From a virus, in the IMG/VR virus record IMGVR_UViG_3300017917_001336, positions 64,001 to 128,000 of that record: a stretch of 64,000 nt of DNA, one strand, 5' to 3'. Below are positions 27,570 through 64,000 of the stretch, in pieces (the first letter of the stretch is position 1; each line of letters opens with the position of its first letter). The notes beneath the pieces were generated by a model. That model saw nothing but the letters and a program-made list of their open reading frames with translations, was not told where the DNA came from and did no database searches. The position numbers and the translations under genes were made by a program.

Positions 27570-29569
27570 ACGCCAGCTAACTTACGCACACGAGTTAGCT
27601 CTGCGCTTTCTTTAAATCCGTCTATAGTATTTGATGCACTTGCCGGGGTATTAAAGTTTTGTGTTGGCGATTGCGGAGGAGTAGTTCCGTATGCATGGTC
27701 TACTAGCATGTCAATAAACTGTTCAACAGTATTGCCAAATGCCTTGTTAGCCGCCACTGCAGCCGCAAAACCTGTACCAGCACCGATGATAGCCGCCGGA
27801 ATAACACCTATAACAGTTGGACTGGCCACAGTACCTGCCAAGGCCGCGCCAAATATAGCAGCCACAATCTCAAGACCAAAACGTGCAATAGGTTGTGCAA
27901 TAATCTTAGTAACTTCAGCACGATACTGATCCTGTGTCATCTTCTTAGGATCAAGTGCTTGATACTTGGCAACAGCATCGCTTACTTCAACGTAAATTGA
28001 ATAACCTAACAACAACCAACCACCTGCTTTAAATGCAGCACCAGTAGCGGCTTTGGCATTTGTTACAGCAGTCTTAGGTGCTTGTGCTACTTTAGCGGCA
28101 AACTCATCAGCGGCTAAATCTAAACGTGTGGTGCCAATTTTAACCGAGTTCCAAGTATTTGGTAATAAACTTTTTTGAATACTGTCTTGTGGAATGCCTG
28201 TTAAGAATGCACGGAATCGAGCACTCCAAGATGCTTTACCAGCGGCACTGGATAAATCAACTGGACTGGTTTGTTGTTGGCTAACAAACTTAACAGCTTT
28301 GTTAAACAGTTTACGAAACTCTGGATCTTTAAGTGCAGAACTAAGTGCTTCCTTTTGAAACTCGGGCGCACTAGTTTTTAAACTACTACGCAAAAAATTT
28401 CTAAATTCTTTGTCCGCTACTTCACCATTGGGAAATGACTTGGGCATTTTGTTAGGGTCAACAAACTCAGCAGTAATGTTTTGATCCAAGAAGCTTTTTT
28501 CAATCATAGCAACAATTTGCTCGTTAGACATCTTGGGTTTAACATCCCGGGCCATTTGTTCCACGGCTTGTTGTAATCGTGAGTTAAGTTCTACAGGGTC
28601 ACGCCAATAAGCATCACCATGATAGTCTGTGGGTATCTTAGGATTAGCTGGCGCCGCACCGGTCTTTAAACGATCACGTAACACAGCCATTTCTTGACGA
28701 TGTGCTGTTAGTCGTTCGCTAGCTGACTTAATAGCAGCTTGATCACCACTGCGAGTAGCGGCAGTTAGTGTTTTTTGTAATTCAGGTTCTTGTTTGACTA
28801 ATTCAGCTAAACGATCGCGATTTTCTACAGCTTGTCGTAAAAATGAGTTAGGAATAGTCTTAGGATCAGTACCCGGAGGAATAGCATCTAGTTGGGCCTT
28901 AAACTTAGCACGGTCGGCGTTTGCATTAACTCGACGCTGTGTGTCAGCCATGCTCATACCTTGTAGTGCGTTATAATGGTGATTTAATTCGTGAGCAATA
29001 GTAGAACGCATACCCTTTAAATCACTAGTAACACGATTGGTAACCCAAAGTCTGTTTGCACGTGGCCCCGGAGAATTAATATTCATGTTGCCCGTGATAG
29101 TTTCTGTGGGTATGTTAATTTGTAGTTTATGCCCTTGCTTTTCTAACCAACTAGCCATGCGGGGATCTTGGCGGAAATCACCCATGCTTGGGCGAGCATT
29201 AGCCTTGTCTGATCGGGCCAAGTCCCAGGGATCAGCAACCTTTGGATTATACTGATAGCCCGTCTTAGGATCAGCAAACCATGTACTAGCACTAGCACGG
29301 GGCATGTCAATAGTATATCCCCCATCGGGTAACTGTTTAAACTTAGCCATGGGCTCAAAGTTAACTTGCCCAGACTGCGCTAATATCTGAACTTGTGGAC
29401 TTTTAAAATCTGCAGGATTAATACCCATGTCTGTTAAATTAACACGAGACCCGTCTTTGACTTTACCGGGGTTGGCATTTAAGTAGTCAATGATCTTTTG
29501 ACTAATTAGTGATAGTTCCTGTTGTGCAACAGCATCTTCTTGTACTAATTGAATATATTCGCGGAGCAT
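27566..29569 (-). CDS. Hypothetical virion (internal/ejection) protein with HExxH motif and C-terminal hydrophobic helices
   Basis: AHELNHH; Gly/Ala-rich hydrophobic segments; TAAATA 5 nt upstream of ATG. Confidence 0.55.
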   Translation of the reverse strand: MLREYIQLVQEDAVAQQELSLISQKIIDYLNANPGKVKDGSRVNLTDMGINPADFKSPQVQILAQSGQVNFEPMAKFKQLPDGGYTIDMPRASASTWFADPKTGYQYNPKVADPWDLARSDKANARPSMGDFRQDPRMASWLEKQGHKLQINIPTETITGNMNINSPGPRANRLWVTNRVTSDLKGMRSTIAHELNHHYNALQGMSMADTQRRVNANADRAKFKAQLDAIPPGTDPKTIPNSFLRQAVENRDRLAELVKQEPELQKTLTAATRSGDQAAIKSASERLTAHRQEMAVLRDRLKTGAAPANPKIPTDYHGDAYWRDPVELNSRLQQAVEQMARDVKPKMSNEQIVAMIEKSFLDQNITAEFVDPNKMPKSFPNGEVADKEFRNFLRSSLKTSAPEFQKEALSSALKDPEFRKLFNKAVKFVSQQQTSPVDLSSAAGKASWSARFRAFLTGIPQDSIQKSLLPNTWNSVKIGTTRLDLAADEFAAKVAQAPKTAVTNAKAATGAAFKAGGWLLLGYSIYVEVSDAVAKYQALDPKKMTQDQYRAEVTKIIAQPIARFGLEIVAAIFGAALAGTVASPTVIGVIPAAIIGAGTGFAAAVAANKAFGNTVEQFIDMLVDHAYGTTPPQSPTQNFNTPASASNTIDGFKESAELTRVRKLAGV

Positions 29570-31770: not shown

Positions 31771-31824
31771 GTGTGTTCGCTCCTTTATTTAAAACATCTA
31801 GTATACTATCGAATGCAGTCTTGG

Positions 31825-31983
31825 TCAACTCTTTTGAAACACGCTTTGCACATAGCACTCGGAGCCATATTGGGCTTCTACTAGTGCTCGAGCCTGTTGC
31901 GGATGGTTGGCCTGAACCACTTGGGTAATGTTTCTCAGTTGGGTGTCGCCACCCACTGAGAATGTAACTTCATACATGTTCAT
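31825..31983 (-). CDS. Small hypothetical protein, 52 aa (not in track)
   Basis: ATG overlaps the stop of the upstream ORF; open frame. Confidence 0.5.
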   Translation of the reverse strand: MNMYEVTFSVGGDTQLRNITQVVQANHPQQARALVEAQYGSECYVQSVFQKS

Positions 31984-32324
31984 TAGTCGAGCCTCGAACC
32001 TGCGTAAGCATCAAACCCATACTTGCGGAGTACTTGGGCGCAAGCTTCTGCACCCGCTTCTAGTGTATCCACGTTCTGGACATAGAGCCCGGATGGGTTC
32101 CAAAGCTGGAATGCCTTGTTATAGCTTTGGCGGATGCCTGCTTCTTTGAGTGTGCGACCCAGTTTGGTGTTGCCTTTGATACCCAGGATATCAACCCAGG
32201 CAAAGCCACATGCGAACTGGTCACGTCCGCCTAGTTTGGTTTGGAAGAACAGGGTTGCTGCTTCGGTAGCTGCTTGGCTAGCTTCTGCTACGATGTCTTT
32301 GACTTGCTCGACTGTATATTGCAT
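31983..32324 (-). CDS. Hypothetical early protein
   Basis: Own promoter and RBS; CGFAWV motif. Confidence 0.8.
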   Translation of the reverse strand: MQYTVEQVKDIVAEASQAATEAATLFFQTKLGGRDQFACGFAWVDILGIKGNTKLGRTLKEAGIRQSYNKAFQLWNPSGLYVQNVDTLEAGAEACAQVLRKYGFDAYAGSRLD

Positions 32325-32496
32325 GGTTCGCTCCTTGCTGTGTTGTTTAAGTATGTATTATACTATTTCAGGGCCGGGTTGTCAACCGTTTGATTCCGGT
32401 ATTTTTGGACTAGACCTTCTGCGGCCATTGCGATGCAGAGTATAGCAAGGAATGCCCAAAGCTCGATGGTCATATAAAATGCGTTGATTACTTCGT

Positions 32497-32829
32497 TCAT
32501 GCTGCCTCCTTAAGGGTTAGAATTTTTGCAGGGTAAGTAATAGAACCTTCCCACTCCAACTGGCTCTTTTCGAACTCAGTCATGTAATCATCGGCTACTA
32601 CACCGTAGGACACGATGTATTGGCGTGAGCCTATATCATCCCACTCTACTTCAGAACGGAAGTAGTTGACCAGCTCTGCTAGAGCTTCATCGGAGCGACC
32701 TGCTGCACCCAGCGGATAGAAGTAGTCCTCACCGCCTTTGAACTTCCAATACTGTGGGCACTCGCCGGTGCCGTCCCAATCGTGGGCACCATAGTTTTCC
32801 ATGTATTGGCAAGTAATGTGCAGTTTCAT
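32497..32829 (-). CDS. Hypothetical early protein
   Basis: Own promoter and RBS; ENYGAHDWDG.GECPQYWKFKGG motif. Confidence 0.8.
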   Translation of the reverse strand: MKLHITCQYMENYGAHDWDGTGECPQYWKFKGGEDYFYPLGAAGRSDEALAELVNYFRSEVEWDDIGSRQYIVSYGVVADDYMTEFEKSQLEWEGSITYPAKILTLKEAA

Positions 32830-32891
32830 ATTCGCTCCTTTGTTTAACTTATGCTGCTAGTATAGCAAATTTGGGCTAGGCTGTCAACCAA

Positions 32892-33119
32892 TTAGTCCCA
32901 GCTCTTTTTATCACCGAACTGCTCGTTCCACTGGTAGCCTGCGAGATAGGCTTGAACTTCTGTAGGTGTTAGATCCGTTACACGATCCGATGTGCCAGTG
33001 CCACCAACATAGTAATGTGGCTGGCGTCCACGGCCGTAGTAGCTGTCTGCAGAGCCTCTATCAAAAGGGCCGCCGTGGCGTTGATCGTATGCGTCTCGGG
33101 ATTCGTATGTAAATGGCAT
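32892..33119 (-). CDS. Hypothetical early protein (start reassigned to 33119)
   Basis: GGAGCGAT RBS and promoter directly upstream. Confidence 0.75.
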   Translation of the reverse strand: MPFTYESRDAYDQRHGGPFDRGSADSYYGRGRQPHYYVGGTGTSDRVTDLTPTEVQAYLAGYQWNEQFGDKKSWD

Positions 33120-33203
33120 TGTATCGCTCCTTGTTAGTATGTGTACATTATAGCAAGGAACAGCCAAACTGTCAACCGTTTGGTTGTTGTATTTTTACAA
33201 CAG

Positions 33204-33280
33204 TGGCCTGCCCGGAGGGAATCGAACCCCCAACCTACGGCTTAGAAGGCCGTTGCTCTATCCGGTTGAGCTACGGGCAG
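33204..33280 (-). tRNA. tRNA-Arg (UCU)
   Basis: Cloverleaf: CTGCCCG acceptor, anticodon loop CTTCTAA, GGTTCGATTCC T-arm, encoded CCA. Confidence 0.95.
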
Positions 33281-33285
33281 ATGAA

Positions 33286-33363
<78 letters not shown>

Positions 33364-33370
33364 GGTTGTG

Positions 33371-33731
33371 TTATCTACTTAGCTGTTTGATTGATTGGTA
33401 GTCACCATCACTGGTTTCTTCGAATACTTCTACAAAGTCGCACCCGTCATTAAATGTACGTTCTGCGAGTTGTATTGCTTCCTTCTTAGAGTGTGTGGTT
33501 TCGATGAGTTCTTGATGGCCATCTAGCTCGGCCCAAACTTCATACTGAGTCCAGCTCATTTCTTTCTTTCTGGTTAAGAAGATCGCAAAGCATCTGTCCT
33601 AGTTGCTCTGCTTCGTGTCTATTGTCTCTTGCAATGATGCAGAGCACCCGCCCAGCTGGGACTGATTTAAAGTCCCTAACAACTACCCTATTAGGGCCGT
33701 AGTCGTCACTGAGCGAGCATCCGTATCGCAT
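33371..33731 (-). CDS. Two small hypothetical ORFs (33371-33559, 33540-33731)
   Basis: Coupled ORFs upstream of the tRNAs. Confidence 0.55.
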
Positions 33732-34097
33732 TTAGAAAGGTGCGTCTTCTGCGTCTGCAGGAACAGCAGCCTTAGCCTTAGTCTTTGACTGTGCCTTAGC
33801 AGGAGCCTTCGCAGGTGCTGCCTTAGCTTTAGGAGCTTTGGGTGCCTTAGGAGCCTTGTCTTCCAAGTACTCCGCAATCGCTGACTGTGCAGCGGCGTCC
33901 TGGAACTCGTCCATAGACTGAAGCTGTTTGACAGCCTCATACTTCGAAACAGCTTCGTCGAGCTCAGCAAGACGAATGTCTTCGTGGCCATGTTTAGCCA
34001 GTACTTTGATACGCATAATATCAGTTGCAAAGCGCACCTTGTACTCGCCATTGAGTTTCGAAACGCCAACGATGTTAAAAGTTTTATCTGTAGCCAT
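33732..34097 (-). CDS. Hypothetical protein with Lys/Ala/Pro-rich histone-like tail
   Basis: AGAGG RBS, own promoter; KAPKAPKAPKAKAAPAKAPAK tail. Confidence 0.75.
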   Translation of the reverse strand: MATDKTFNIVGVSKLNGEYKVRFATDIMRIKVLAKHGHEDIRLAELDEAVSKYEAVKQLQSMDEFQDAAAQSAIAEYLEDKAPKAPKAPKAKAAPAKAPAKAQSKTKAKAAVPADAEDAPF

Positions 34098-34166
34098 TGT
34101 AATACCTCTTTCTGTGTGTGGTTTAAGTTTATATGCCAGTTTCCTTAGCATGTTTCTATTATAAGT

Positions 34167-34436
34167 TCATTTGCTCGGTTTGTCAACCGTTTTGTGCCTC
34201 TTTTGGGCAACCAATTTCTCTTTCTCTTTGCCAAATTCCTTTTCTGAGTAGTATTCAATCAAATGGTGTCTAATCATTAGGGTTAGATCCATTCCGGAAT
34301 CATCTGGGCAGATAAATCGGACTGGACAGTATCCCCAACTCCTCGTTTGGACAAACTGGTAATACCAGCGCCTATGATCCTTGTTGTAAGGATCAAAGGC
34401 TACCAGCGGGCGTGAATAATATTCTAACTTACTCAC
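34167..34436 (-). CDS. Hypothetical protein
   Basis: 89 aa ORF with RBS. Confidence 0.6.
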   Translation of the reverse strand: MSKLEYYSRPLVAFDPYNKDHRRWYYQFVQTRSWGYCPVRFICPDDSGMDLTLMIRHHLIEYYSEKEFGKEKEKLVAQKRHKTVDKPSK

Positions 34437-34486
34437 GATCCTCTATCCATAGACGCATAATTGCATCCAATTGGTCCATCGCTTCT

Positions 34487-35122
34487 TTACTTGCTACCAT
34501 GTGGTTCCAATCCTCTCTTTTCAATGCCATCTTCATACCATTCCTGGACTTCGTCCATTTCCTCTGCTTCATACTCTGCCATTGACTCACTGATACCAAA
34601 CATCTCGTCCAGTTCCTCGCCAATGGTGTCTACAACAGTCTTAGAGTTGGTGCCACCGTAATCGTAGCACTCGTCGTAACCGTCTTCGAACTTGCCCACA
34701 TAAGCCATACCTGGCTCGTAGTAGTAAGCACGAACTTCAAAGCCTTGCTCAACCAACTCTTCGTAAACACCCATAGGAGGGCTCCACGCAGAGTCAAATC
34801 CAAATTCAATAGTGTTGTCTTCTACAACAACAGCCTCAGGGTCATAAGCATCAACATCCCATTTGGTGCCCCAGCGGCCTACGCAGAAGTCATACCAGTT
34901 GCCATAGCCATACTTCTCGACATTTTCAGCAGTCTTACGAACCAATTCAATTTGGTCCGGGTTGTCATCGCTACCCACGCAACCTGCTACAATGTTCAGG
35001 TCCTCTGGAACAGGAATGACGTGTTTAAGGAATCTGCCTTCGCGGACAGCACTCGCAAGCGCCTCTATTTTAGCAGAGTCAGTGTGTGAAATTGTGACGT
35101 TGTTATTGCACCAATTAGGCAT
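34487..35122 (-). CDS. DUF1281/YubB-like ferredoxin-fold protein
   Basis: MPNWC.N, WGTKWD, FDSAWSPP, YYEPG motifs. Confidence 0.8.
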   Translation of the reverse strand: MPNWCNNNVTISHTDSAKIEALASAVREGRFLKHVIPVPEDLNIVAGCVGSDDNPDQIELVRKTAENVEKYGYGNWYDFCVGRWGTKWDVDAYDPEAVVVEDNTIEFGFDSAWSPPMGVYEELVEQGFEVRAYYYEPGMAYVGKFEDGYDECYDYGGTNSKTVVDTIGEELDEMFGISESMAEYEAEEMDEVQEWYEDGIEKRGLEPHGSK

Positions 35123-35140
35123 AGTTCGCTCCTATGTTGT

Positions 35141-35404
35141 TTAAGAAAATTCGTAAAAGGTTACGCTAGGGTCAATGCTCATCAACTCGCGGGCTGCACG
35201 GCGCAGATAAGTTGCACGGTCCTGCAGGGCCTTACCACGCAGTTCGCCATCGCAAGTAAGGTTCTCTGGGCTAAGGTCCGCATCCAAAGAGTTCGCAATC
35301 TTCTGGCGGTCCTCTGCGTTGAGCAGGCTCAAGGCCTTGCTACCAAAGATAGCACCCCAACGGTTCTTTTGCTCTACATAGTGTTCGATAGTTGAAATAT
35401 TCAT
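35141..35404 (-). CDS. Hypothetical early protein
   Basis: Own promoter and RBS; LSPENLTCDGE motif. Confidence 0.8.
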   Translation of the reverse strand: MNISTIEHYVEQKNRWGAIFGSKALSLLNAEDRQKIANSLDADLSPENLTCDGELRGKALQDRATYLRRAARELMSIDPSVTFYEFS

Positions 35405-35450
35405 TTTCGCTCCTGTTTATTTACTATAACTCTATTGTAAGCTCAAATGA

Positions 35451-35696
35451 TCACTTTGTCAACCGGAACTGATCAATAACCCTATTAGCTTCAGGGAAAT
35501 CGGTGTTGTTTTTCTGCAACATTTCCTCGTCCACGCACTCCATAATCATTAGACGCTGGAGCAGTTCTGCTTGGTGTTGCTGGGCAGGGTCGAGCGCATC
35601 GTACCAGTTGAGGAAGTCCTCTTCGGTTTCAAGTTCGTTCCACATGAAGTCCAGCATCTCCACTTGTTCTTCAGTTAGGTTGTTGATCGTAGGCAT
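35451..35696 (-). CDS. Small acidic hypothetical protein
   Basis: Coupled ORF. Confidence 0.6.
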   Translation of the reverse strand: MPTINNLTEEQVEMLDFMWNELETEEDFLNWYDALDPAQQHQAELLQRLMIMECVDEEMLQKNNTDFPEANRVIDQFRLTK

Positions 35697-35697
35697 A

Positions 35698-35874
35698 TTA
35701 GGAGTTGATAGTTGCGTTAGGGCTGTATTCCTCGTCTACACCGCACCCGTTGGACTCAATCCAATCGTATACGATATCCACAGGACAGCCTAGTTGGACA
35801 GCAATACTCTTAGGGCCATAGCCCTCAATGTAGAGCTGTTCAATGTCGTATGCTAGGTCTTTCAGTTTAGTCAT
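35698..35874 (-). CDS. Small helix-turn-helix protein, 58 aa (not in track)
   Basis: LYIEGYGPKSIAVQLGCPVDIVYDWI HTH-like pattern; GAGGAGG RBS. Confidence 0.55.
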   Translation of the reverse strand: MTKLKDLAYDIEQLYIEGYGPKSIAVQLGCPVDIVYDWIESNGCGVDEEYSPNATINS

Positions 35875-36079
35875 CGTAGGCCTCCTCGCCCAATTCAGTT
35901 ACTTCTTCTTCCAGCACCATTACGTCAATGATGCGAGCTGTTTGATCTTCGTTGCTTACGCCCTGGAACGCAGTACGAAAGGATTGATACTCACCGAGGA
36001 AGTCATAGACATCCATTCGGTCCCAGCCCTCTGGCACTTCAATCTCTTGCCGGAGGATAGTTGTTACATAGGCTTTCAT
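35867..36079 (-). CDS. Small acidic hypothetical protein
   Basis: AGGAGG RBS; ATGA overlap. Confidence 0.7.
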   Translation of the reverse strand: MKAYVTTILRQEIEVPEGWDRMDVYDFLGEYQSFRTAFQGVSNEDQTARIIDVMVLEEEVTELGEEAYDD

Positions 36080-36558
36080 GCTGCCTCCTTCTCTGCTTGG
36101 AACGCAAATGCTTCTTCCAGTGTAAGGAACTCGCCGTCAGTGCCGTAAAAGTCAACAAACCAAGTAGCCTTGCCGTTTACATTGCGCAGGATGTATTCGT
36201 ACTCCTCACGCTGGTGCTCTCGTGCATATTCCTCAAAGTTCTTAAAACGCTTGGCACCCACACCCTCTTCGCCGCGATCGCGACCGTAGAAGGTAGTAAT
36301 TTGTTGGCGTGCTTCTTGCTCTGCTTGGTACTCAGGGGTACCGTACTTGGCTTGTATGTCAAAGCTGTGCTTCTCGCCAATCTCAGGGCCCAGCGAGCTA
36401 ACATCGCCCAAGTCCATAAGCTTCTGCACTTTGAAGGGATCCATGTAGTGATCGCGCAGGATAACACCGTTGTGATCTAAGTAACCGTCCCAGTGGCAGT
36501 AGATCTGATCCACAGTACCGTCTGCGTATTCAATTGCAATAGTTGATCGTGTAGCCAT
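36076..36558 (-). CDS. Hypothetical early protein (IYCHWDGY motif)
   Basis: Own promoter and RBS. Confidence 0.8.
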   Translation of the reverse strand: MATRSTIAIEYADGTVDQIYCHWDGYLDHNGVILRDHYMDPFKVQKLMDLGDVSSLGPEIGEKHSFDIQAKYGTPEYQAEQEARQQITTFYGRDRGEEGVGAKRFKNFEEYAREHQREEYEYILRNVNGKATWFVDFYGTDGEFLTLEEAFAFQAEKEAA

Positions 36559-36614
36559 TTGTTTCGCTCCTGTGTGTGTTTAAGCCTTAATTATACAACC
36601 TTTTGGGTCCGCTG

Positions 36615-36851
36615 TCAAGCCACTTCTTTGTAGACTTTGTAGCCGTAGATCGCCAGCTTGCGGATAGCCGATTGGATCTCGCCGTAGGTCTCGTTGAGGT
36701 CTTCTAGGCACTTCTTAGCATCTTTGATAGTGTCTGCGGTGCAGGTCTCGCCTGAGTAGATGTGTCTGCAGTCGTAGTAACGATCGCCATCGTCAGTGAC
36801 CAGTTGGTAAGTGCCAAAGGTCTTGTACATTGTCATCTCGCCTGTTTTCAT
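36615..36851 (-). CDS. Hypothetical protein (start reassigned to 36851)
   Basis: AAGGAGCGAG RBS. Confidence 0.7.
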   Translation of the reverse strand: MKTGEMTMYKTFGTYQLVTDDGDRYYDCRHIYSGETCTADTIKDAKKCLEDLNETYGEIQSAIRKLAIYGYKVYKEVA

Positions 36852-36869
36852 CGCTCGCTCCTTGTTGAT

Positions 36870-37064
36870 TAATCTGTTGGGGAACTCCGGACTAGCCGCT
36901 AGCACCGTCTGCTAGATCGTCTGCCTTCGTCATTACCGCCTACCTTCTCCGCCGCTTCTCCGAGCTTACGCCCTGTTTCATGTGCTTAGATTGAGCGTGA
37001 CCGTCGCCACTGTCCTAACCCTCTAAGCACCTAACGGTGTAGGTAACCCCTAATTCCTTACTAT
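36870..37064 (-). ncRNA. Candidate structured ncRNA or long 5' leader
   Basis: Consensus promoter upstream; nested helices; no credible ORF. Confidence 0.5.
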
Positions 37065-37067
37065 GTG

Positions 37068-37325
37068 TTAATTATAAGCCCAAACCTCAACCTTGTCAAC
37101 CTCTGCAATAACCCTACTGCCTGTATGGGTAATGTAAACTTTAGTACTATCTGTACCGCCTTCAACTAGGAAGACAGCCATGTAGACGAATTGCCCACCG
37201 TTGCTTATGCCCAGGAACTTGCACGAGCTGAACGCAGGGCCCTTATAGCCATTCTCGCGGGCTAGGCTGTTGAGCGTAGGCCCATTGTAGGAGATAAGAG
37301 TTTTTAGTGTCTCTGGGGTAATCAT
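37068..37325 (-). CDS. Hypothetical protein
   Basis: GAGGAG RBS. Confidence 0.65.
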   Translation of the reverse strand: MITPETLKTLISYNGPTLNSLARENGYKGPAFSSCKFLGISNGGQFVYMAVFLVEGGTDSTKVYITHTGSRVIAEVDKVEVWAYN

Positions 37326-37470
37326 TTAGGCTCCTCAATTTTTAAGTTAGACAACACGGCTTCTAGTGTGTCGTAAGCCATTTGCCAACGATCCCCAGGG
37401 ATGTTATAGATCTGACTAATAGCATCGTTGAGAGTAGCTAGAGCCTCTAGCTTCTTGTAGTCTTGCTCAG

Positions 37471-37791
37471 TCATTCTGCATCCTCCTCTACTGCTTCGTC
37501 TTCCAAGCAGTCAAAGCAGTCCTCTACACGATTGTGTCCCTGATAGATAGTGTAGTCGCCAATTTGTGTTTTACATTCTTTGTCAATGTACTCGAAGCCG
37601 CCGTAGTACTCTAAGCTACGGGCATTGTCGCTAACAATAACACGCTCGCCTCTGTCAATGTACACACGGCCGCAACGGATGTCTAGTCCCAGCTTGTCAG
37701 CACTCACCCGTTCCATACCCGCTACAAAACGCTCAATGCCGTAGCTAACCTCGTCTACAACATCCAAAATGCTAGTGCAGTCTTTAAACAT
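37471..37791 (-). CDS. Hypothetical early protein
   Basis: Own promoter and RBS; LEYYGGFEY motif. Confidence 0.75.
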   Translation of the reverse strand: MFKDCTSILDVVDEVSYGIERFVAGMERVSADKLGLDIRCGRVYIDRGERVIVSDNARSLEYYGGFEYIDKECKTQIGDYTIYQGHNRVEDCFDCLEDEAVEEDAE

Positions 37792-37847
37792 AGTTTCGCT
37801 CCTTTTGTTTAACTTAGCCTATAGTATAGCACCGAGGGCCCAAACTG

Positions 37848-38084
37848 TCAACCCCATGCTTTCAATAACCCTGCACAGCACACAAGTATTCCCGCAAGGT
37901 TGACAAGGATTTGTGCTTTGTTGCGTACCCTATAGCTCCACATAAAATAAAAGCTACCACCGCATAGCCCTGCTACTAAATTGTAGGGGTACAGTTGGGG
38001 GTAAAAAGACATTAATATGTACATTGTGAGGAGGCACATAGTGCCTGCCCACTGTAGCATATTATTAAACATTGTCTGCCTCAA
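37848..38084 (-). CDS. Small membrane protein
   Basis: Three hydrophobic segments. Confidence 0.6.
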   Translation of the reverse strand: MRQTMFNNMLQWAGTMCLLTMYILMSFYPQLYPYNLVAGLCGGSFYFMWSYRVRNKAQILVNLAGILVCCAGLLKAWG

Positions 38085-38250
38085 ATTCCATTACGTCACA
38101 GCGCAAGTCCTCTACAATGTCCTCAATCCTGCAATGCGTCTCATAGCACACGTCACTGTCACCCAGTGCATCTTGTATAAGTGCGTCTGCGTCCTCTAGC
38201 AATTCCATTGCCTCGCGCAGTTTAGCTGCTTTTTGTTTTGCTGTTAGCAT
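38065..38250 (-). CDS. Hypothetical early protein
   Basis: Own promoter and RBS. Confidence 0.75.
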   Translation of the reverse strand: MLTAKQKAAKLREAMELLEDADALIQDALGDSDVCYETHCRIEDIVEDLRCDVMEFEADNV

Positions 38251-38328
38251 AGTGTCGCTCCTTGCTGTTTAAGTGTTTTAATTATAGCGCACATAGCCCA
38301 ATCTGTCAACCATGTGCGCTTGTGTTAA

Positions 38329-38661
38329 TTAAAACGCCCCTTCAAAAATTTGTTGTGTTTCGTATGCATACAAATCGCCTGTAGCCTTTTCGCGTACAGT
38401 AATCCAATCCTGTGCATAAAAGCGTTCTTGCTCATATGCGCTACCCATAAAAAAGTAACAGTCTACAGTCTCAAACTCAATCTCGTCTGTAGCAAATTGT
38501 TTAACAATGTATTCACCACATTCATCAGCGTCTAACGCATACCCGTGTTCACCAACGCTACCTAGTACATTAGCAATCCAGCGTTCCTGCTGCTCTTGCG
38601 TGTCCTCTGTGTATGTAATGTCTTGCAGTTTGCACAATTTTACAAAATTACGCTTTTCCAT
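38329..38661 (-). CDS. Acidic hypothetical early protein
   Basis: GGAGCGAA RBS; extended -10 promoter TGCTATACT. Confidence 0.75.
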   Translation of the reverse strand: MEKRNFVKLCKLQDITYTEDTQEQQERWIANVLGSVGEHGYALDADECGEYIVKQFATDEIEFETVDCYFFMGSAYEQERFYAQDWITVREKATGDLYAYETQQIFEGAF

Positions 38662-38727
38662 TTTTCGCTCCTTCTAATTACAGTACAGCTAGTATAGCAC
38701 AGCTAGCCTAGCTGTGCTGTGCTTACA

Positions 38728-39051
38728 TTACGCCTCCATGCTAGCAAGCTCGTCCTCTTGCATACCTTGTTCTGTAAAGCTAACAGCAAAGCCTACAGCG
38801 TCACTAATAGCAGTTTCAAACCCACTATCTGTATAAATGTCCCATGTGCTGTTGTGTTGCACATTTACCATTGTATAAAATTCGCTGTCGTAAATGTTAT
38901 TAATAATAGTAATACCTGTTACATTAATAACACGCCCTGCCTCACAGCCCCACAAGCCGTCGCCTGCTGTAGTAACTGTAAATGCACACATAAATTCTGT
39001 AATAATACAGTCTACGTCACGCTCGTAACGCACAAGCACTAATTTTTGCAT
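38728..39051 (-). CDS. Acidic hypothetical early protein
   Basis: Own promoter and RBS. Confidence 0.75.
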   Translation of the reverse strand: MQKLVLVRYERDVDCIITEFMCAFTVTTAGDGLWGCEAGRVINVTGITIINNIYDSEFYTMVNVQHNSTWDIYTDSGFETAISDAVGFAVSFTEQGMQEDELASMEA

Positions 39052-39134
39052 ACATCGCTCCTTTTGCTACTTAAAAAACAATTATAGCACAGCAAGCCCA
39101 AAATGTCAACTTGCTGTGCTAATAACCCTACAGT

Positions 39135-39365
39135 TTAGTCTATTATTTGCACATTAGCACAGCGCAAAGTCTGCATAGCAGTATTAATGCTTTTTAATAC
39201 TTCTGCTTGTGCATTTACATAATCTGTACTACAAATATCTCCTGTAACTAGTACAGCATTTTTAACAGTTACTACATTATGCTTATCAAAACTAAAAATT
39301 ACGCGATAAGTGTTAAGACGCTTGTTTACTACTACTTTAGCTAACACAGTACAATTTGTTTGCAT
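39135..39365 (-). CDS. Hypothetical early protein
   Basis: Own promoter and RBS. Confidence 0.7.
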   Translation of the reverse strand: MQTNCTVLAKVVVNKRLNTYRVIFSFDKHNVVTVKNAVLVTGDICSTDYVNAQAEVLKSINTAMQTLRCANVQIID

Positions 39366-39413
39366 ACACGCTCCTTCTAAGTGTTTGTATTATAGCGCAG
39401 CTAGCCCAAAATG

Positions 39414-39653
39414 TCAAATCCCTACAGCTTGTAGGGTCTTTAGTTCTTGTTGCAATTCTGCCACACGCTGTTTTTGCAGTTGTGCAATAAACTTGACTTT
39501 TTTAGTTTCGATGTCTTTGCGGAACTTATTAATGCTTACATTTAGCATATAAGAGGTTTGTCCGTAGCTTTGCAGCTTATTTTGTGTTTTGTACACATGA
39601 GCACGAGCGGCAGACATAGCGTATGCGTTTACAGTATTAGCGTATTGACCCAT
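39414..39653 (-). CDS. Basic hypothetical early protein (start reassigned to 39653)
   Basis: AAGGA RBS and consensus promoter upstream. Confidence 0.7.
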   Translation of the reverse strand: MGQYANTVNAYAMSAARAHVYKTQNKLQSYGQTSYMLNVSINKFRKDIETKKVKFIAQLQKQRVAELQQELKTLQAVGI

Positions 39654-39883
39654 CTTTGTTCCTTTTAAAAATGTATTATAGCACACTTTGGACCCGCTGT
39701 CAACAACCCTAACGACCGTAGGGTCTCTCATGATCCATTGACGCCTAACCCAAAAGGCAGTATAATACATGTATTCGAACAAAGGGGGGTGGACGTCGAG
39801 GCTGGGCGTCAGTTTCTGAGCCTGAAATAAGAAAAAGTGTGGCATCTGCGCCACACTCTAGAATACCCTGGTTGACAGCAGGG

Positions 39884-40147
39884 TTACATGCTCCAGTATG
39901 CCTCGCTGGATGGGCTACAGTATCTGGGCGTATCAAATCGTTCCATGTACTCTTTACCACCCATCATGTTGATCCGCTTGACCATAGTCTCATGGATTTC
40001 ATAGCGGAACCCTTGACTGGCTCGCCACGTATGCTTGACAGTATGCTCTAGGGTCTTGAGGTCTGTAGTATCATAGTCACTATAATGCACTCGGCGCTCG
40101 CCTGCCTTGGTGCGAGCATCCTTTTTGTATATGATAACGGTATACAT
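39884..40147 (-). CDS. Hypothetical protein
   Basis: GGAGG RBS; C-terminal TP.YCSPSSE.YWSM motif. Confidence 0.7.
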   Translation of the reverse strand: MYTVIIYKKDARTKAGERRVHYSDYDTTDLKTLEHTVKHTWRASQGFRYEIHETMVKRINMMGGKEYMERFDTPRYCSPSSEAYWSM

Positions 40148-40425
40148 TATGCAGCCTCCAACATTGACAGTGGAACGGAGTAGACCATGTTCATGCTAGG
40201 GATATGCACATCGGCCTTCTTGATCTTGATCTTGCGGATCGTTCCCACTACGGTACCACCCAACTTGGCATGGGTCAGTTTAACCTTATCGCCACTGTGG
40301 AAGGTGCAGGCGTTAACCCGGGCAGTCTTTGAACGGGCAAAGGCCACAGCGTCTACAATACTTTGCAGATCCTGCGCAGACCACGCACCCGAAATAATTG
40401 CACGATTGATAGTACCAATATCCAT
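40147..40425 (-). CDS. Small SH3/KOW-like beta-barrel protein
   Basis: FHSGDKV...GTI.KI pattern; own promoter and RBS. Confidence 0.65.
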   Translation of the reverse strand: MDIGTINRAIISGAWSAQDLQSIVDAVAFARSKTARVNACTFHSGDKVKLTHAKLGGTVVGTIRKIKIKKADVHIPSMNMVYSVPLSMLEAA

Positions 40426-40504
40426 TTCACGCTCCTTTTTGTCTAAGTGTTTCTATTATATGCTCAAACGCACCCGCTGTCAACCTACTAAGCAGCGGGG
40501 CCTA

Positions 40505-41209
40505 TTATGCAGCTACAGCGATTGGAATCATACGGCGAACGAACCCAGTGGTGTCCTTCTTAGCACGACCCTTAGCCTTAAGCCCTGCGATGCAACCCTT
40601 AGGGTCCAAAAAGCGCAGGTCAGTGTCGTCTGCATTAATTACAGGACGGCCCATGTAAGAGTCTGGGAGCTTGTCAAAGACAGCAGCCACGTTCATACCT
40701 GCACTCACTGCCTTTTGTACGTCTGCTTCGTTACCGTCTGCAGCTGAGAACGTCAAGTGATAGTTGGGCAGGTGTGCTACCTTGCGTCCAAGCACCTTAG
40801 TATAGTCATAGAACTGTACATTGGGGAACTTCTCAATGATACCGTACTTCTCCCAAGCCAAGTCCGATGTACCGTTAAGGCGGAACACGGGTGTCAAACC
40901 CAGCTTCGCAGACTGTTTGATGCCCAGCTTGATGTCCTTCTCCAGCTGAGCCATAAATGCATCACGCTGCTCAAAGAACATCCTAGTCTTGCGAATGCGA
41001 GCCTGCTGGATCATGTTGGTGTTTTCACCGCGCTTGAACATACCACCGCGCCCGGCAGTATTCAAACAGGCAGCGGTACAGCCTGCGGTGCGCTTAGGGC
41101 AAGTCTCCTTACCGGACAGCGTCGCAGGAGCAAGATGCAGAATAAAGCTAAGATAGCCCAATTTTGCACCCTTTTGGATCTTGGGATTTGCAGTACTTAG
41201 AAGTTTCAT
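40505..41209 (-). CDS. Gp88-like phage protein with Cys cluster
   Basis: CP.RTAGC.AACL, RLNGTSD, FYDYTK, YHLTFS motifs. Confidence 0.7.
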   Translation of the reverse strand: MKLLSTANPKIQKGAKLGYLSFILHLAPATLSGKETCPKRTAGCTAACLNTAGRGGMFKRGENTNMIQQARIRKTRMFFEQRDAFMAQLEKDIKLGIKQSAKLGLTPVFRLNGTSDLAWEKYGIIEKFPNVQFYDYTKVLGRKVAHLPNYHLTFSAADGNEADVQKAVSAGMNVAAVFDKLPDSYMGRPVINADDTDLRFLDPKGCIAGLKAKGRAKKDTTGFVRRMIPIAVAA

Positions 41210-41265
41210 GTTCGCTCCATGTTCGTTTAAGTTAGCCTATAGTATAGCAAGAATTAATAACCCTG

Positions 41266-41589
41266 TCAACCGTCGGTGTATTGGTCGTTGAGCGAGGGTT
41301 GATGCTGCTTGACCCATGCCCGTTCCCAAGCATAAGCTTCAGCCCGCCCACGTATGACAGCCAGTACTTCGTGTTCCCAGTCTGTCCAAGCACCAGCACG
41401 GATATATTCGTATACAGTCCACGCCTGCTGTTCGTGACGAGCCCGGCTAATATGCTTACGCCAACGCTCTGCCACTGCCTTAGGTACTGTACGGGTGCCC
41501 TTACGGGTCAAGCCCACGTATACATTGCCTTCATGCATAGCAGCGTAGATAACATAGTTTGAATCTTTACGAGCAGTTCTTTTTGTCAT
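41266..41589 (-). CDS. GIY-YIG-like nuclease, probably leaderless
   Basis: YVIY...YVGLT...RW.KH...E; -10 box 6 nt before ATG 41589. Confidence 0.65.
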   Translation of the reverse strand: MTKRTARKDSNYVIYAAMHEGNVYVGLTRKGTRTVPKAVAERWRKHISRARHEQQAWTVYEYIRAGAWTDWEHEVLAVIRGRAEAYAWERAWVKQHQPSLNDQYTDG

Positions 41590-41901
41590 AGTCGTATTAT
41601 AGCATTCCGAGCCCAAACTGTCAACCACAATAACCCTACAGCTGACTCGGGTATTTTTGCCCCGAGTTGACAGCCTGCCCAAAATGCAGTATAATTTGGG
41701 CATAGGTTCGAACAGCTACACTGGGGATGGACGGCGAGGGTGCGCAGGTGATTCTAAGTTAGTAAGTGCCAACTTAGCCCGTGGTTAAAATACAACAAAC
41801 TAGAAAAACCCGGTTGACAAAACGGGTTTTTGGGCTGGGTGTCTCGGCCCGGCCGAGACCGTCTCGGCCCCTTTTTCTCAAAAACCATTCCGAACCGCCG
41901 C

Positions 41902-43577: not shown

Positions 43578-43952
43578 ATGCAACTTAAAGTGTACAATCC
43601 ACAACATGCTCGTCGTGATGTTTACTTCTTTGAAGTAGCCGAGTTTCACTACTATACGGGTGAGGAAGTTAATGTTAAATGGGCCAAGGCGTGTGAAATG
43701 GGTTTCAAGACTGATGACGCGGTTGGCTTGCGTATTATACAGCGCAAGTGGATTCGTGAAATTGATGGCCAGCCCTATGTGTATAAGGATGAGCTAGAAG
43801 TCAAGCCTTCGGGCATCATTGAGGTTGCAGGCTCTAAAGGATCTGTGTATTATCTAGATATAGGCCAGGGTACTTGTACATGCCCGGGCTTTACATTTAG
43901 GGGTGCTTGCAAGCACATAGCTGAACATGTCAAATCATCCGGAAGAAGTTGA
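43578..43952 (+). CDS. SWIM zinc-finger protein
   Basis: CTCPGF.FRGACKH. Confidence 0.8.
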   Translation: MQLKVYNPQHARRDVYFFEVAEFHYYTGEEVNVKWAKACEMGFKTDDAVGLRIIQRKWIREIDGQPYVYKDELEVKPSGIIEVAGSKGSVYYLDIGQGTCTCPGFTFRGACKHIAEHVKSSGRS

Positions 43953-46301
43953 ATATTTTATACGCAAATATGAAGCTCAAATAGAGCCCAGCCGCAAACG
44001 AGTGGCTTACAAGCGGCCACCATATAACTATGCACTAGCATTTGATGAGCCATACACATACTCCGTAGACATAGAACGTGAGCCTTGTGTAGAAATAACC
44101 CTACCCCCTGAACGTTTTAGAGATTTATTGGATCAGCAACATACCCTGACACGCTTGATGGAAGATTCGGGACGTTATGGGGAAATGCTAGCCGAAATGC
44201 GAGCAGAAGAACGGGTACGCCAGGATAACCCTGCTGTGGCCCGTGCTTGGCGTAACTATGTTACCCTATTAGAATTAGCAAGGAGATAGTATGGAATTTG
44301 ATATAATAGCTACCCTGGTAGCATTTGGTTTGATAGCCCTATTTGTTGTGGGCATGTATAAGTGTGTAAAGGGTGACTCGGATGATTAAAGGTATTAACG
44401 GGGGCCAGTTTATAACAGTCCAGGGTGGCTCACCATCATCTACATACGTTAACAACTATTCAGGTGGCCAGGGTGTGGGCAATATGCGCTACAATACTTC
44501 TAGCCAGAACGTTGAAGTGTATGATGGTAATAACTGGGTACAGCTAGCCATGAGCTATGCTAGTGTAGAGCTGTCGGGTGATGCTCAAAGTTTACTACGC
44601 TGGGCCCAAGATGAACGTTCACGTCAGAGTCGTCGTCAAGAGCTAATTAAAAACAATCCTGCACTACAAAAAGCCTATGAAGCTATTGCTCGTGCTGAAG
44701 CTAACTTTGACATCCTGGAAAAGTTTGTGGAGAACGACAGTGAATCAGGTCAAGTCCAATCCAGCCCATAACGAGGGTAGTATCAAACTACCCGGGGAAA
44801 CGGACCCGGACTTTGCTCGTGTAGTTCACGAGTATCTTAGCCATTTTGCTTACTATAAAATCAAAAAGGACTATGCTCAACGTGAGCGTTTATACGAGTG
44901 GTGTGCCCAATACATGGGTGAAAAGTACCGGGATTGGTTTGTACACGAAGGTGGCAAGTATGACAAATGGTGGACCATAAACATACGCAGTCCAAAACAT
45001 TGCACCATTTTTAGTTTACGCTGGTCCGATATCATTATCGAATTTGTTGACAGAAAATCTAAATAGTGCTAAACTAAGGCTATCGTATATCTAAAGGTAG
45101 CTATGTTTACTGCTGAAACTTTTCAATCTAAGCACGACATCCGCACAATTCGCCAAGGCGAACCTAACTTCATGCTAAGTGATGGCATGGTCATGTATCC
45201 ACGGGCTATGATTCATATCATGCCTGAATGTCCGTTGCGTGTTCGCGAAATGATTAATTGGGCTATTACCGAAGGATATGTTAAAACCGTAGCACATGTT
45301 CAAGGAAAGGAACTGACATGGGAACAACTCACAAAATAACTGGCTTTAGAAACTGGCTACAGGAAATGTGGATGTTACACAAGGACGAGTATAGTGAAAT
45401 GCACTTGCCAATTCCAGAATCAGATCAAGCTGAATACTTTCAAAAGTACAAGTATTGGCTTAAACGTGAATACCGCCACCAAACTAAGGATGAATAATAA
45501 TGTTTGATTCTATTTTTATATTGTTAGCCTTGCTGTTTATCAAGCATTGGTACATTGACTTTGTTAATCAATCTAATGAAGAAGTAGCGGGCAAAGGCAT
45601 TTACGGCAATGCTCACGGGCTTATGCACTCTATCAAGCATGGTGCGGCTACGTTCTTAATTTTCCTGTTGTTTAGCAAAGACTTTCCTTTTAGCGTGATT
45701 ATTGGCTTTTTGGACTTTGTGCTACACTATCACATTGACTGGGCCAAAATGAATATCAACAAGCGTTTTAAATATACAATTGAAATGCCGCAGTTCTGGG
45801 CTTGGCTTGGTGCTGATCAATTAGCTCATTCGTTAACTTATCTAGGATTGGTTTGGTTAGCAGTATGAAAGAACTTCCTGTTCACAAAGACAAATTAGGC
45901 CGCGAAATTAAAGTAAATGACTTTGTGGCTTATCCTACTCATAACAGCCTTGAGTTCGGCAAGGTTATGAAAATTAACAACAAGATGATTGGTGTGTTGC
46001 CTGTTATTCAAAAGTACAAGCATCACAAAAATACAAACAAGTATCCATCTGATCTAGTTCGTTTAGAAGCACAGGATATGACATGGTATATACTAAAGAA
46101 CTCGTAGACCCAATGAAACTTCCCTGTGGAGGTACAGCATACTTTGATCAAGACTCGGGTATTGCTTATCGTTGTCAAGATTGCATGGCTGTAGTTGGAT
46201 CAATTGGGCAACCACAACGATGTAAAGATGCGGCTCAAAAATATGAAAATTGGGCGGCCATGGGTGGCGAGCCCTGGGATTACTTTGAGGAAGCAGAATA
46301 A
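43927..46301 (+). CDS. Run of small hypothetical genes (43927-44289, ~44373-44771, ~44677-45066, 45103-45339, 45500-45868 membrane DUF3307-like, ~45865-46107, ~46112-46301)
   Basis: Tightly packed same-strand ORFs; the 45500 ORF is hydrophobic with H..ID, HS..H, HYHID, DQLAH. Confidence 0.6.
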
Positions 46302-52134: not shown

Positions 52135-53774
52135 GCAAAACAATTTTTTACAAAAAGGTTGGCAGGCGCTATCAGCCTGTAGCAGAGTTTGACAATGAAT
52201 ATATGGACAGTTTTCCAAAAGGCAACCACTTGGTTATGTGTTATCCAGGAGGCCAATCTCGCAGGTTTAATATTGATCCTGCTTATGCCCCACTGATAGC
52301 AGCTGGTCGTGTTGCTGAAGATGCTATCAGCAAACATATCATGGAAGTTAGTTCATTGCGAGTTCCAGATAAGGAAAAGCCATTAACTGACGAACAACGC
52401 AATGCCTGGCAAGCATTTAGTAAAGCAATGGGCAAGGAAGTGTATGCCCTTGAATACTGCTCATACCGTGAAGCCGCCGAGCAAGGTGTAAAAGCTATGA
52501 TGGATGAAGCAGAGAAACTATTAGAAAACCCTGTCGTTCGCAAAGCATACGAACGATTCCTATTAATCTGTGAACTTACAAAGGAACACACATGAAAGAA
52601 GTTTGGTTATTTTTAAAATGGAAGTGGGCAAAGTTTACCTTTGCTGACAAGTGTTGGTTTGGTGGCGCATTCCTGGTAGGTTCGGGAACATATGAAATGT
52701 GGACACATCCACAAGATCCAATCCCATTGAGGGTGCTTGTTGGATTTGGACTTTGGTTTACTGTTCTAACTAAATGGTTTATAGTTGATCAAATCAAAGA
52801 CCAATGGTTGAAATACAAAAAAGAAAAATCAGAGCTGTTTAACACAATTAAGGAGAGTGAACATGCAAGTAAGAGTTGAAGAAAACGCAGAAGATATTGG
52901 TAAGTGTGGTTGTGGCCGCAGTCCTACAGGTAAGTGTATTGGTCTCCATACACTAACTGAACAACAATGGATTGAAGGCAAAACACAAATCCTTGCTAAC
53001 ATTGCTATTGGCAGAACTAATATTGGTATTGAAAAACCCGTTGGGGAGCCGGACGATGAAGTGGTTTGACAAATGGTTTTATAAACAAGCCAAAAAGGCT
53101 TGGGACAACAAAGACCAATATGAAGAAGAAAGTAATTACGTCTTAAGTGCAAAAGAAGCTAGGAGTCTAAAAATGGGAACAATGGGTGCAGTACAAATTG
53201 ATAGAGGCCGCGCAGAAGGCGAAGATCGGATTAGTTTTGAACTAACATCAGCAGTTGGCGGACGCATTCTTAATGTACGCAGATATGATCAGCGTAAAGA
53301 TCAGCATGATCAACAAACCTATGTAATTCCTAGCGGCGAAGATGTAGGTGCTAGAGTAGCTAAAATTTTGAACTTGGAATTGCTTAAATAAACTATCCTT
53401 TCTGGAGAATCATAATGGAAGAAGTTCTATTGTACGTGATTGCACTTGGTTTTGCATTTTGGTTAGGTTGGCATCTTAGAAGCATCGTAATGATAGCCAA
53501 TTTAGCAACCAATCCCGATAAAGTTATTAAGATGCTTGAAAAAATCAAAGAAATTAATGCCGCCGAAGCAGACGGAAAAGATGCATCAGAGCTCGAAGGA
53601 ACAGAAATTGCACCAGAGCAAGTAGGAAACGTATGGTATGCTTATGCAAAAGATTCTGGACAATTCCTTGGTCAAGGTCCAACATTTGAAGATGCGCTCA
53701 AAATGGCCGCCGAACGATTTCCTAATAAAAAGTTTTGGTGTAAAAAACCAAAAGAAGTTAGCCATAACACTTGA
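52131..53774 (+). CDS. Run of hypothetical genes (~52131-52595, 52592-52879, ~52857-53069 CDGSH-like, 53056-53391, 53415-53774)
   Basis: Packed ORFs; CGCGRS.T..C.G.H resembles a CDGSH iron-sulfur motif. Confidence 0.55.
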
Positions 53775-63686: not shown

Positions 63687-64000
63687 ATGAGATCTAAAGA
63701 GTTTACGCCAGGCAACAGAGATTTAATTATCTTTGATATTGACGATACACTACTTCATACGACTGCTAAAATTAAAGTCATAGATGCCAACGGCAATATA
63801 GTAAGAGATTTAACTAATCAAGAGTTTAACAATTACCAACTCCGCCCAGGCGAGCAATTTGATTTTGGAGAGTTTCGTAGTGCTGAAAAGTTTCGTCAAG
63901 AAAGCCAGCCTATTGTCCCAATGATACGTAAACTCAAAACAATATTATCGCATGCCGGTACTGCTAAAGTTATCATGCTTACCGCTCGCGCAGATTTTGA
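63687..64000 (+). CDS. HAD-family protein, truncated by window end
   Basis: IFDIDDTL, LTAR motifs. Confidence 0.75.
   Translation, partial: MRSKEFTPGNRDLIIFDIDDTLLHTTAKIKVIDANGNIVRDLTNQEFNNYQLRPGEQFDFGEFRSAEKFRQESQPIVPMIRKLKTILSHAGTAKVIMLTARADF

Follow-up and report, generated by a model that had tools for sequence, protein, structure and literature searches.

A gene-bounded, strand-specific absence of GA and GG from early genes of an uncultured jumbo phage, possibly an escape from its own guanine modification

A group of small early genes in an uncultured jumbo phage was found to lack every GA and GG step on its template strand over 1.27 kb. The sequence analysed, hereafter called the window, is a stretch of 64,000 nt (positions 64,001 to 128,000 of IMG/VR record IMGVR_UViG_3300017917_001336) from a contig of 147,567 nt with a CheckV completeness of 40%. 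The purge of these steps is an inherited trait bounded by genes. It is best explained as a way for the phage to evade its own modification of guanines that precede a purine, with a probability of roughly 0.6 that covers two routes jointly, a direct block of the polymerase or a host-made lesion in the template.

Results

The phage and its early gene array

Judging from its core genes (capsid, terminase, primase, helicase, recombinase and SSB), which group with those of PA5oct, Phosso, Atu_ph07 and GAP32-like jumbo phages, the source is an uncultured freshwater jumbo phage of the PA5oct/GAP32-like kind. Identity to cultured members is 62-72% for the capsid, 65-70% for the RecA-like protein and 45-55% for the terminase, and the capsid is 83% identical to that of the relative G008. 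Features of the early region are as follows, in window coordinates; TC/CC counts of genes refer to the coding strand.

31800-41624, minus strand: array of about 16 near-consensus sigma70 early promoters, each with one to a few small genes
37471-37791, minus strand: nearby early gene, partly purged (9 TC/CC per 56 C)
38035-39304, plus strand: GA/GG-free tract (template), equivalent to a TC/CC-free coding strand, from dinucleotide counts and shuffles
38065-38250, minus strand: 61-aa acidic protein, pI 4.1, 0 TC/CC
38281-38309, minus strand: consensus sigma70 promoter of the 61-aa gene, inside an inverted repeat at about 38286-38320 (z -5.7)
38329-38661, minus strand: 110-aa acidic protein, pI 4.2, 0 TC/CC, without a family match
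38691-38701, minus strand: extended -10 promoter of the 110-aa gene, without a -35 hexamer
38728-39051, minus strand: 107-aa acidic protein, pI 4.1, no proline; the marker gene of the tract
39081-39109, minus strand: consensus sigma70 promoter of the 107-aa gene, inside an inverted repeat at about 39085-39121 (z -6.2)
39135-39365, minus strand: 76-aa basic protein, pI 9.0, 2 TC/CC near the 5' end (39305, 39317)
39389-39417, minus strand: consensus sigma70 promoter of the 76-aa gene, with a TC/CC-free spacer
39414-39653, minus strand: upstream neighbour gene, partly purged (13 TC/CC per 50 C)

The array also holds tRNA-Arg(TCT) and tRNA-Met genes (33204-33363, minus strand) and a Gp88-family gene (PF17338; 40505-41209, minus strand). 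Elsewhere, a gene with a carbamoyltransferase N-terminal domain lies between the primase and the DnaB helicase (window 21824-22771, plus strand); its counterpart in G008 is 58% identical, and cultured relatives lack the gene. Another carbamoyltransferase-like gene was recognized by eye among oxygenases (contig 43798-45501, minus strand). Long fibre-like genes (window 24804-27569, plus strand; contig about 26000-36000) are low in GA (rho 0.34-0.5) and CC on the coding strand with normal GG, which probably reflects codon and amino-acid use.

Composition of the tract

Exact counting gave no GA and no GG among the approximately 195 G of the plus strand from 38035 to 39304. Between the bounding steps, a GG at 38033-38034 on the left and a GA at 39305-39306 on the right, 196 G were counted, with 101 GC and 94 GT, and the opposite-type steps stand at a normal level on the same strand (80 TC and 62 CC). 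The plus strand is the template for the tract genes, and the mRNA-sense strand is without TC or CC; the right edge is set by the two TC/CC of the 76-aa gene. The GA/GG-free gap measures 1272 nt, the second longest in the window and in the whole contig being 156 nt, and the longest mirror gap, free of TC/CC, reaches 149 nt contig-wide. A run of 195 consecutive G without a following purine compares with a maximum of 16-18 in local shuffles; at the flanking rate (P of a purine after G = 0.38), the probability of 0 of 195 is about 1e-41. When the four genes were re-encoded with the codon use of the other early genes, 66 +/- 7 TC/CC were obtained (minimum 39 in 20,000 runs) versus 2 observed. Proline is absent from all 354 aa of the four proteins (P = 1.5e-5), all 12 serines are encoded by AGY and all 17 phenylalanines by TTT, and C content is lowered from 22% to 15%.

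The original prediction, made from the letters by eye, had put the number of G on the order of 200, had called the effect strand-specific and beyond chance or codon bias, and had assigned to it three complete genes (61-, 110- and 107-aa), most of a fourth (76-aa), their promoters and four proline-free proteins (at 38065, 38329, 38728 and 39135). The counts and the codon-shuffled control bear all of this out. Its description of a depletion fading over roughly 37.5-39.7 kb held insofar as neighbouring genes are partly purged (in the upstream one, the coding strand also has 14 GA/GG per 45 G), but the transitions at the edges are gene-bounded steps and not a smooth decay.

Inheritance of the purge and the 107-aa marker protein

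A search of related phages for the same desert, proposed with the prediction, was successful. Homologues from independent metagenomes (47-92% protein identity) carry the same gap, which indicates that the tract is not an assembly artefact. Among 108 distinct stand-alone homologues of the 107-aa protein, 60 have no TC/CC at all and 86 have fewer than 0.1 per C; the purge is kept down to about 40-50% identity in independent freshwater and marine samples, and proline makes up 0.05% of residues in 120 homologous proteins. The limits are sharp in this family, with zero TC/CC from 20 nt upstream of the transcription start to 10 nt past the stop codon and a return thereafter. The same domain also occurs within 19 long late-type proteins, whose N- or C-terminal motifs are typical of the head-packed proteins of these phages and which are, on that basis, probably capsid-targeted. 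Their genes have normal TC/CC (0.21-0.47), so the purge depends on early promoter-driven status of the gene and not on the protein.

Some 40 small gene families are purged in related loci, among them that of the 61-aa protein, a TC/CC-free family of about 15 members; no relatives of the 110-aa protein were found in IMG/VR. Marine and estuarine relatives (L018, L156-L158, L179, L141, which is G006, and L095) have larger purged blocks of up to 2078 nt, and in some of their genes most coding-strand GA/GG are lost as well, which leaves Asp-, Glu- and Gly-poor proteins. In L018 the 107-aa protein has two diverged homologues, each of 137 aa.

None of the four tract proteins matched Pfam, PHROGs or PADLOC, and no homology of the tract proteins to known inhibitors was found. 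The 107-aa protein was modelled confidently as a beta-rich fold (pLDDT 96) that resembled no solved structure in a structure search (best Z 5.0). It had no match among PDB sequences and only unnamed phage proteins in BFVD, and neither 50,697 phage records nor five cultured relatives contained a homologue. A role for it as a cis-acting deaminase was rejected: it has no deaminase motif or fold, and other purged genes exist without it. The suggested genome search for deaminases did yield a gene at contig 127687-129174 (from window position 63687), whose product of 495 aa combines a HAD-like start with a RibD-like zinc deaminase domain (PF00383). The start of this product resembles those of probable head-packed proteins of the phage.

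Purged spacers and start sites

Loss of TC/CC is not confined to the transcribed RNA strand. Promoter spacers of purged units contain 10 TC/CC per 168 C versus 591 per 1317 in ordinary promoters, and 4 per 39 C where the unit lies below an ordinary upstream gene; these spacers are untranscribed from their own promoter, with read-through transcription a possibility. On the opposite side, GA/GG of the coding strand are avoided at synonymous sites of purged genes (odds ratio 0.23 versus 0.55-0.59, one gene per family), while in the window alone this bias is the same as in other early genes (0.37 versus 0.45). Ordinary early promoters are affected as well: from -6 to +15, 10 promoters of the contig have 0 TC/CC versus 10.2 expected, and the promoters of the clade, which are related to each other and so not independent, have 71 versus 547. 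The -35 hexamer retains GA on the non-template strand. Upstream of Shine-Dalgarno-led start codons, TC/CC per C is 0.32-0.35 without a promoter versus 0.04-0.06 when promoter-led; in long-leader promoters, a set probably containing many false ones, start-site and leader effects are not separable. Since spacers are purged, coding-strand GA/GG are avoided and ordinary early start sites are clean, the banned feature appears to be read in DNA.

Inverted repeats pair the promoter spacer with DNA upstream of the -35 hexamer in many purged genes. Stems of at least 8 bp were found at 19 of 56 purged promoters versus 12 of 378 ordinary ones, and the promoter of the 110-aa gene overlaps a short repeat (about 38696-38718) that is not significant. 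Such repeats could be operators, cruciforms or terminators.

A DpdA-like gene cluster in relatives

The tract-bearing relatives G001, G006 and G008 encode a protein of 500-550 aa, located through its FolE neighbourhood, that adjoins DNA polymerase B. Because the listed Foldseek matches of its model (E 5e-6, pLDDT 66) are all tRNA-guanine transglycosylases (TGT), the protein is DpdA-like with a predicted TGT fold. It is missed by the Pfam TGT profile (PF01702; four partial records), NCBIfam and PHROGs. Beside it in these three relatives lie DpdL-like, glycosyltransferase-like, FolE and QueE genes. Across 81 DpdA-like loci, the partners are a 177-aa gene (75), a DpdL-like gene (69), a glycosyltransferase-like gene (67; its assignment is an Atlas lead) and FolE (56), and the cluster, found at 243 loci, is widespread in freshwater jumbo phages. 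The DpdL-like protein carries an LxxxHRHxF-like DpdL signature motif. Partial records of relatives contained FolE in 6 of 16 cases and QueD in 4 of 16, and the sole complete genome, G004, has FolE, QueD, QueE and the DpdL-like gene. True QueC was not found in the relatives examined, the matches in G004 and G006 having turned out to be unrelated proteins.

The gene set corresponds to the DpdL route to 7-deazaguanine as described in PMC10516641. Based upon gene content, the cluster is a candidate route to a new 7-deazaguanine, possibly a glycosylated one, and cluster-bearing phages perhaps decorate the base beyond 7-deazaguanine. The search for dpdA, queC and folE that the original prediction had recommended thus divides: DpdA, the precursor-pathway genes (FolE, QueD, QueE) and the adjacent PolB are absent from the 40%-complete contig itself, the whole DpdA block, PolB included, belonging to the part that is missing, and the tract-bearing relatives supply the DpdA-like and FolE genes.

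Among the 50,697 phage records, orthologues of the DpdA-like protein were found only in PA5oct-like phages (43% identity, to EST35_0316 in PA5oct), Phosso and Vibrio phage 2.275.O. In both G001 (L203, 3354-9922) and PA5oct (EST35_0316-0322), an unannotated DpdA-like gene lies in a cluster with the 177-aa, DpdL-like, family-1 glycosyltransferase-like and FolE genes. The gene does not always accompany a full purge. G005 and G013 have it, with the glycosyltransferase-like gene, and an ordinary marker gene, the start sites of G005 being clean (0 of 37); in G004 the marker gene is only partly purged; and Phosso and Vibrio phage 2.275.O have the orthologue and no purge.

Patches in PA5oct, and control phages

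PA5oct depends on host RNA polymerase (PMC7318152), and the resistance of its DNA to enzymes suggests, from the restriction digests in PMC12191111, that G is modified in GA and/or GG. Its genome (MK797984.1) contains five patches of 100-220 bp in which 48-56 consecutive G/C occur without GA, GG, TC or CC, compared with a maximum of about 15 in local shuffles:

239310-239460, both strands: patch free of the four steps
264997-265138, both strands: patch free of the four steps
267341-267558, both strands: patch free of the four steps
277084-277228, both strands: patch free of the four steps
27594-27698, both strands: patch free of the four steps
253409 and 21065: weaker patches

The patches are mostly intergenic or promoter-proximal and are not copies of a single repeat; two overlap small genes (EST35_0386 and EST35_0432), and one spans twin promoters ahead of a tRNA cluster. 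A Z-DNA-like purine-pyrimidine alternation was rejected, as AA, TT, AG and CT steps remain. At seven start sites (-6 to +15), 2 TC/CC were counted versus 6.7 expected. No whole purged gene was found in PA5oct, its terminal-repeat early genes included, and its anti-END gp52 is ordinary.

Two phages without the DpdA block, Ecwhy_1 and Atu_ph07 (the latter covered to 80%), are the only true negative controls. Neither has long patches, consecutive G/C runs reaching 16-17, and neither has a start-site purge (39 TC/CC versus 38 expected in Ecwhy_1, 32 versus 24 in Atu_ph07). CAjan (KP064094.1), despite preQ0 at GA/GGC, has at most one patch, of 60 nt, at an early-gene start (53678-53737; 30 G/C versus 12-15 shuffled). 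A 240-nt TC-free stretch was also seen in CAjan at 39243-39485.

Explanations of the purge

Under an escape from the phage's own modification, a DpdA-type transglycosylase would insert a 7-deazaguanine derivative at G before a purine (GA, GG), and the neighbouring glycosyltransferase may add a sugar to it. The marked template G would hinder the host sigma70 RNA polymerase on incoming virion DNA, either directly or through host modification-dependent glycosylases or nucleases that make a template lesion; damage by such enzymes would matter most on the template strand. Selection would then clear template GA/GG around the start sites of all early promoters, and a few first-needed genes would be purged over the whole unit, from the spacer of the promoter to shortly beyond the stop codon, at the price of proline and all TCN serine codons. 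Their small, mostly acidic products would probably relieve the block or inhibit a host sensor, so that other early genes become readable.

Bacterial RNA polymerase is blocked more strongly by bulky groups on 7-deazaguanine than by those on any other base, but not by unsubstituted 7-deazaguanine, and the block in vitro is mainly at initiation, not elongation (PMC4838386). An initiation block fits the clean start sites; because elongation was not inhibited in vitro, the purge of whole genes needs a bulkier, elongation-stalling adduct or a second actor. END nucleases (PMC12191111) and Dag glycosylases (10.1101/2025.10.29.685425) are candidates for damaging the marked G. The presence of the DpdA-like cluster with the tract, the PA5oct patches, the purged spacers and start sites, and the lack of a purge in DpdA-less controls make this the best supported explanation. 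Against it, DpdL alone would give plain 7-deazaguanine, which the polymerase tolerates, DpdA is absent from the contig and its link to the purge is incomplete, neither whole purged genes in PA5oct nor more than one patch in CAjan could be found, and the -35 hexamer keeps non-template GA. The original prediction had offered the same explanation, GpR modification with a clean template, which fared best of its four models, save for the DpdA gene that the contig does not contain. A bolder form is put forward tentatively: a bulky, probably glycosylated 7-deazaguanine at GA/GG may silence incoming DNA, absence of the mark serving as a built-in timing code. As a guess of similar standing, clean start sites might define all early genes, and the products of fully clean 'pre-early' genes might unlock the rest, the 107-aa protein, which other phages may pack into their capsids, being one example.

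Escape from the host terminator Rho is unlikely, if worth weighing. YC-free messages could not load Rho, and the first genes, which may encode an antiterminator, would be Rho-proof. The banned pair is exactly the 5'-YC motif (UC, CC) that the Rho primary site binds in nascent RNA (PMC12360218), the ban is strict on the message strand and runs 10-20 nt past the stop codon, and the leaders of every early promoter are purged. Left unexplained are the purged untranscribed spacers, the avoidance of coding-strand GA/GG and the both-strand patches of PA5oct. E. coli and Agrobacterium hosts possess Rho, yet the DpdA-less relatives that infect them show no purge. Moreover, since Rho loading requires many YC on a long ribosome-free stretch, escape from it gives no reason for translated genes to be wholly YC-free.

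Considerably less probable is evasion of a host enzyme, either a toxin or part of a defence, directed against unmodified YC in mRNA or on the displaced non-template strand, with the tract products as its inhibitors. An RNase, an RNA or ssDNA ADP-ribosyltransferase or a deaminase would suit a strand-specific, absolute ban on small acidic early genes, but no enzyme with UC and CC specificity was found, the same rule holds across phages of fresh and marine waters, whose hosts presumably differ, and neither spacers nor the intergenic both-strand patches of PA5oct are messages. CmdT acts on GA in RNA. It illustrates that dinucleotide-specific defences exist (bioRxiv 10.1101/2024.02.24.581662), but evasion of CmdT/CmdTAC does not fit because the tract messages are rich in GA (80 on the coding strand). 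The YpC-specific enzyme of the original prediction is best retained in the form of Rho, which it had left out.

A purely mutational origin is less likely still. YC-directed, local, strand-biased C-to-T mutation by UV or a deaminase, on the non-template strand of genes under heavy transcription, would have erased the steps without selection. The change from TC/CC to TT/CT is a UV and APOBEC-type signature, C content is lowered, the contig codes for a deaminase-domain protein, and the family-wide third-position T of 0.47 falls between the values predicted under selection (0.43) and mutation (0.49). However, four-fold sites in the tract (Val, Thr, Ala) show no rise in T (31 of 93) and prefer A. 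In homologue alignments, conserved serines alternate between TCN and AGY, a two-base change, along with the purge, as the prediction had proposed to check. The edges are gene limits, the proteins remain conserved, and neighbour genes with equally good promoters are ordinary in TC/CC. Preference for A, the serine switches and these ordinary neighbours strongly indicate that selection removed template GA/GG, and the YpC hypermutation of the original prediction is disfavoured. Its last proposal, removal of sequence that pairs with GGAG, would, if meant to leave Shine-Dalgarno sites accessible to ribosomes, suit the UC/CC complementarity and the purged leaders but can practically be discarded, as single dinucleotides cannot pair stably, promoter-less Shine-Dalgarno-led genes are unpurged and DpdA-less controls have no purge.

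Discussion

The complete exclusion of two dinucleotides from one strand, to the point that proteins are rewritten, bears a very strong mark of selection. If the phage's own modification is its cause, the ban would answer how host RNA polymerase transcribes hypermodified virion DNA and show the cost of modification shaping gene sequence. It would also give a sequence-only readout of the modification motif and allow first-needed genes, candidate anti-defence or RNA-polymerase factors, to be identified in uncultured jumbo phages. The finding draws attention to a DpdA group, as yet unannotated, that has a glycosyltransferase-like partner and occurs in PA5oct/Paride-like phages of therapy research; in PA5oct, a cultured therapeutic phage, the same signature can be seen and is directly testable.

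The closest known systems are phages that modify their DNA through DpdA, with motifs of GA and GGC in CAjan and GA in iggy according to PMC7544227 and PMC10484667. Here too the banned steps are G before a purine, the tract-bearing relatives have the predicted TGT-fold DpdA-like protein, FolE, QueD, QueE and DpdL-like genes without true QueC, and the orthologue in PA5oct is syntenic. Unlike those systems, this DpdA group adjoins a glycosyltransferase-like and a 177-aa gene and escapes standard profiles, and the motif in this clade is deduced from avoidance. Keyword searches of the CAjan, iggy, DpdL and PA5oct papers (PMC7544227, PMC10484667, PMC10516641, PMC12191111) gave no mention of gene islands or promoters free of modification.

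As with END nucleases and anti-END1 (PMC12191111), Dag1/Dag2 (10.1101/2025.10.29.685425) and T4 IPI*, modified G would become a liability. Such modification-dependent defences give a rationale for small early or virion-packed inhibitors, and the 107-aa domain occurs both early and in probable capsid-packed proteins; the anti-END gene of PA5oct (gp52) differs in not being purged, and the tract proteins have no homology to known inhibitors. Rho utilization sites (PMC12360218) share the identical two-letter set on the RNA strand but are long, untranslated, C-rich RNA, and DNA spacers or the opposite strand are not read.

No paper was found that describes such strand-specific dinucleotide-free islands in phages. 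Avoidance of restriction sites in first-entering DNA is known from the first-step transfer region of T5 and the left end of T7, where sites of 4-8 bp are avoided on both strands. There, as here, the DNA expressed first is motif-free so that counter-measures can be made. In this phage, by contrast, the ban concerns a pair of dinucleotides on one strand, is bounded by genes and overrides amino-acid choice, and the reader is likely the phage's own enzyme.
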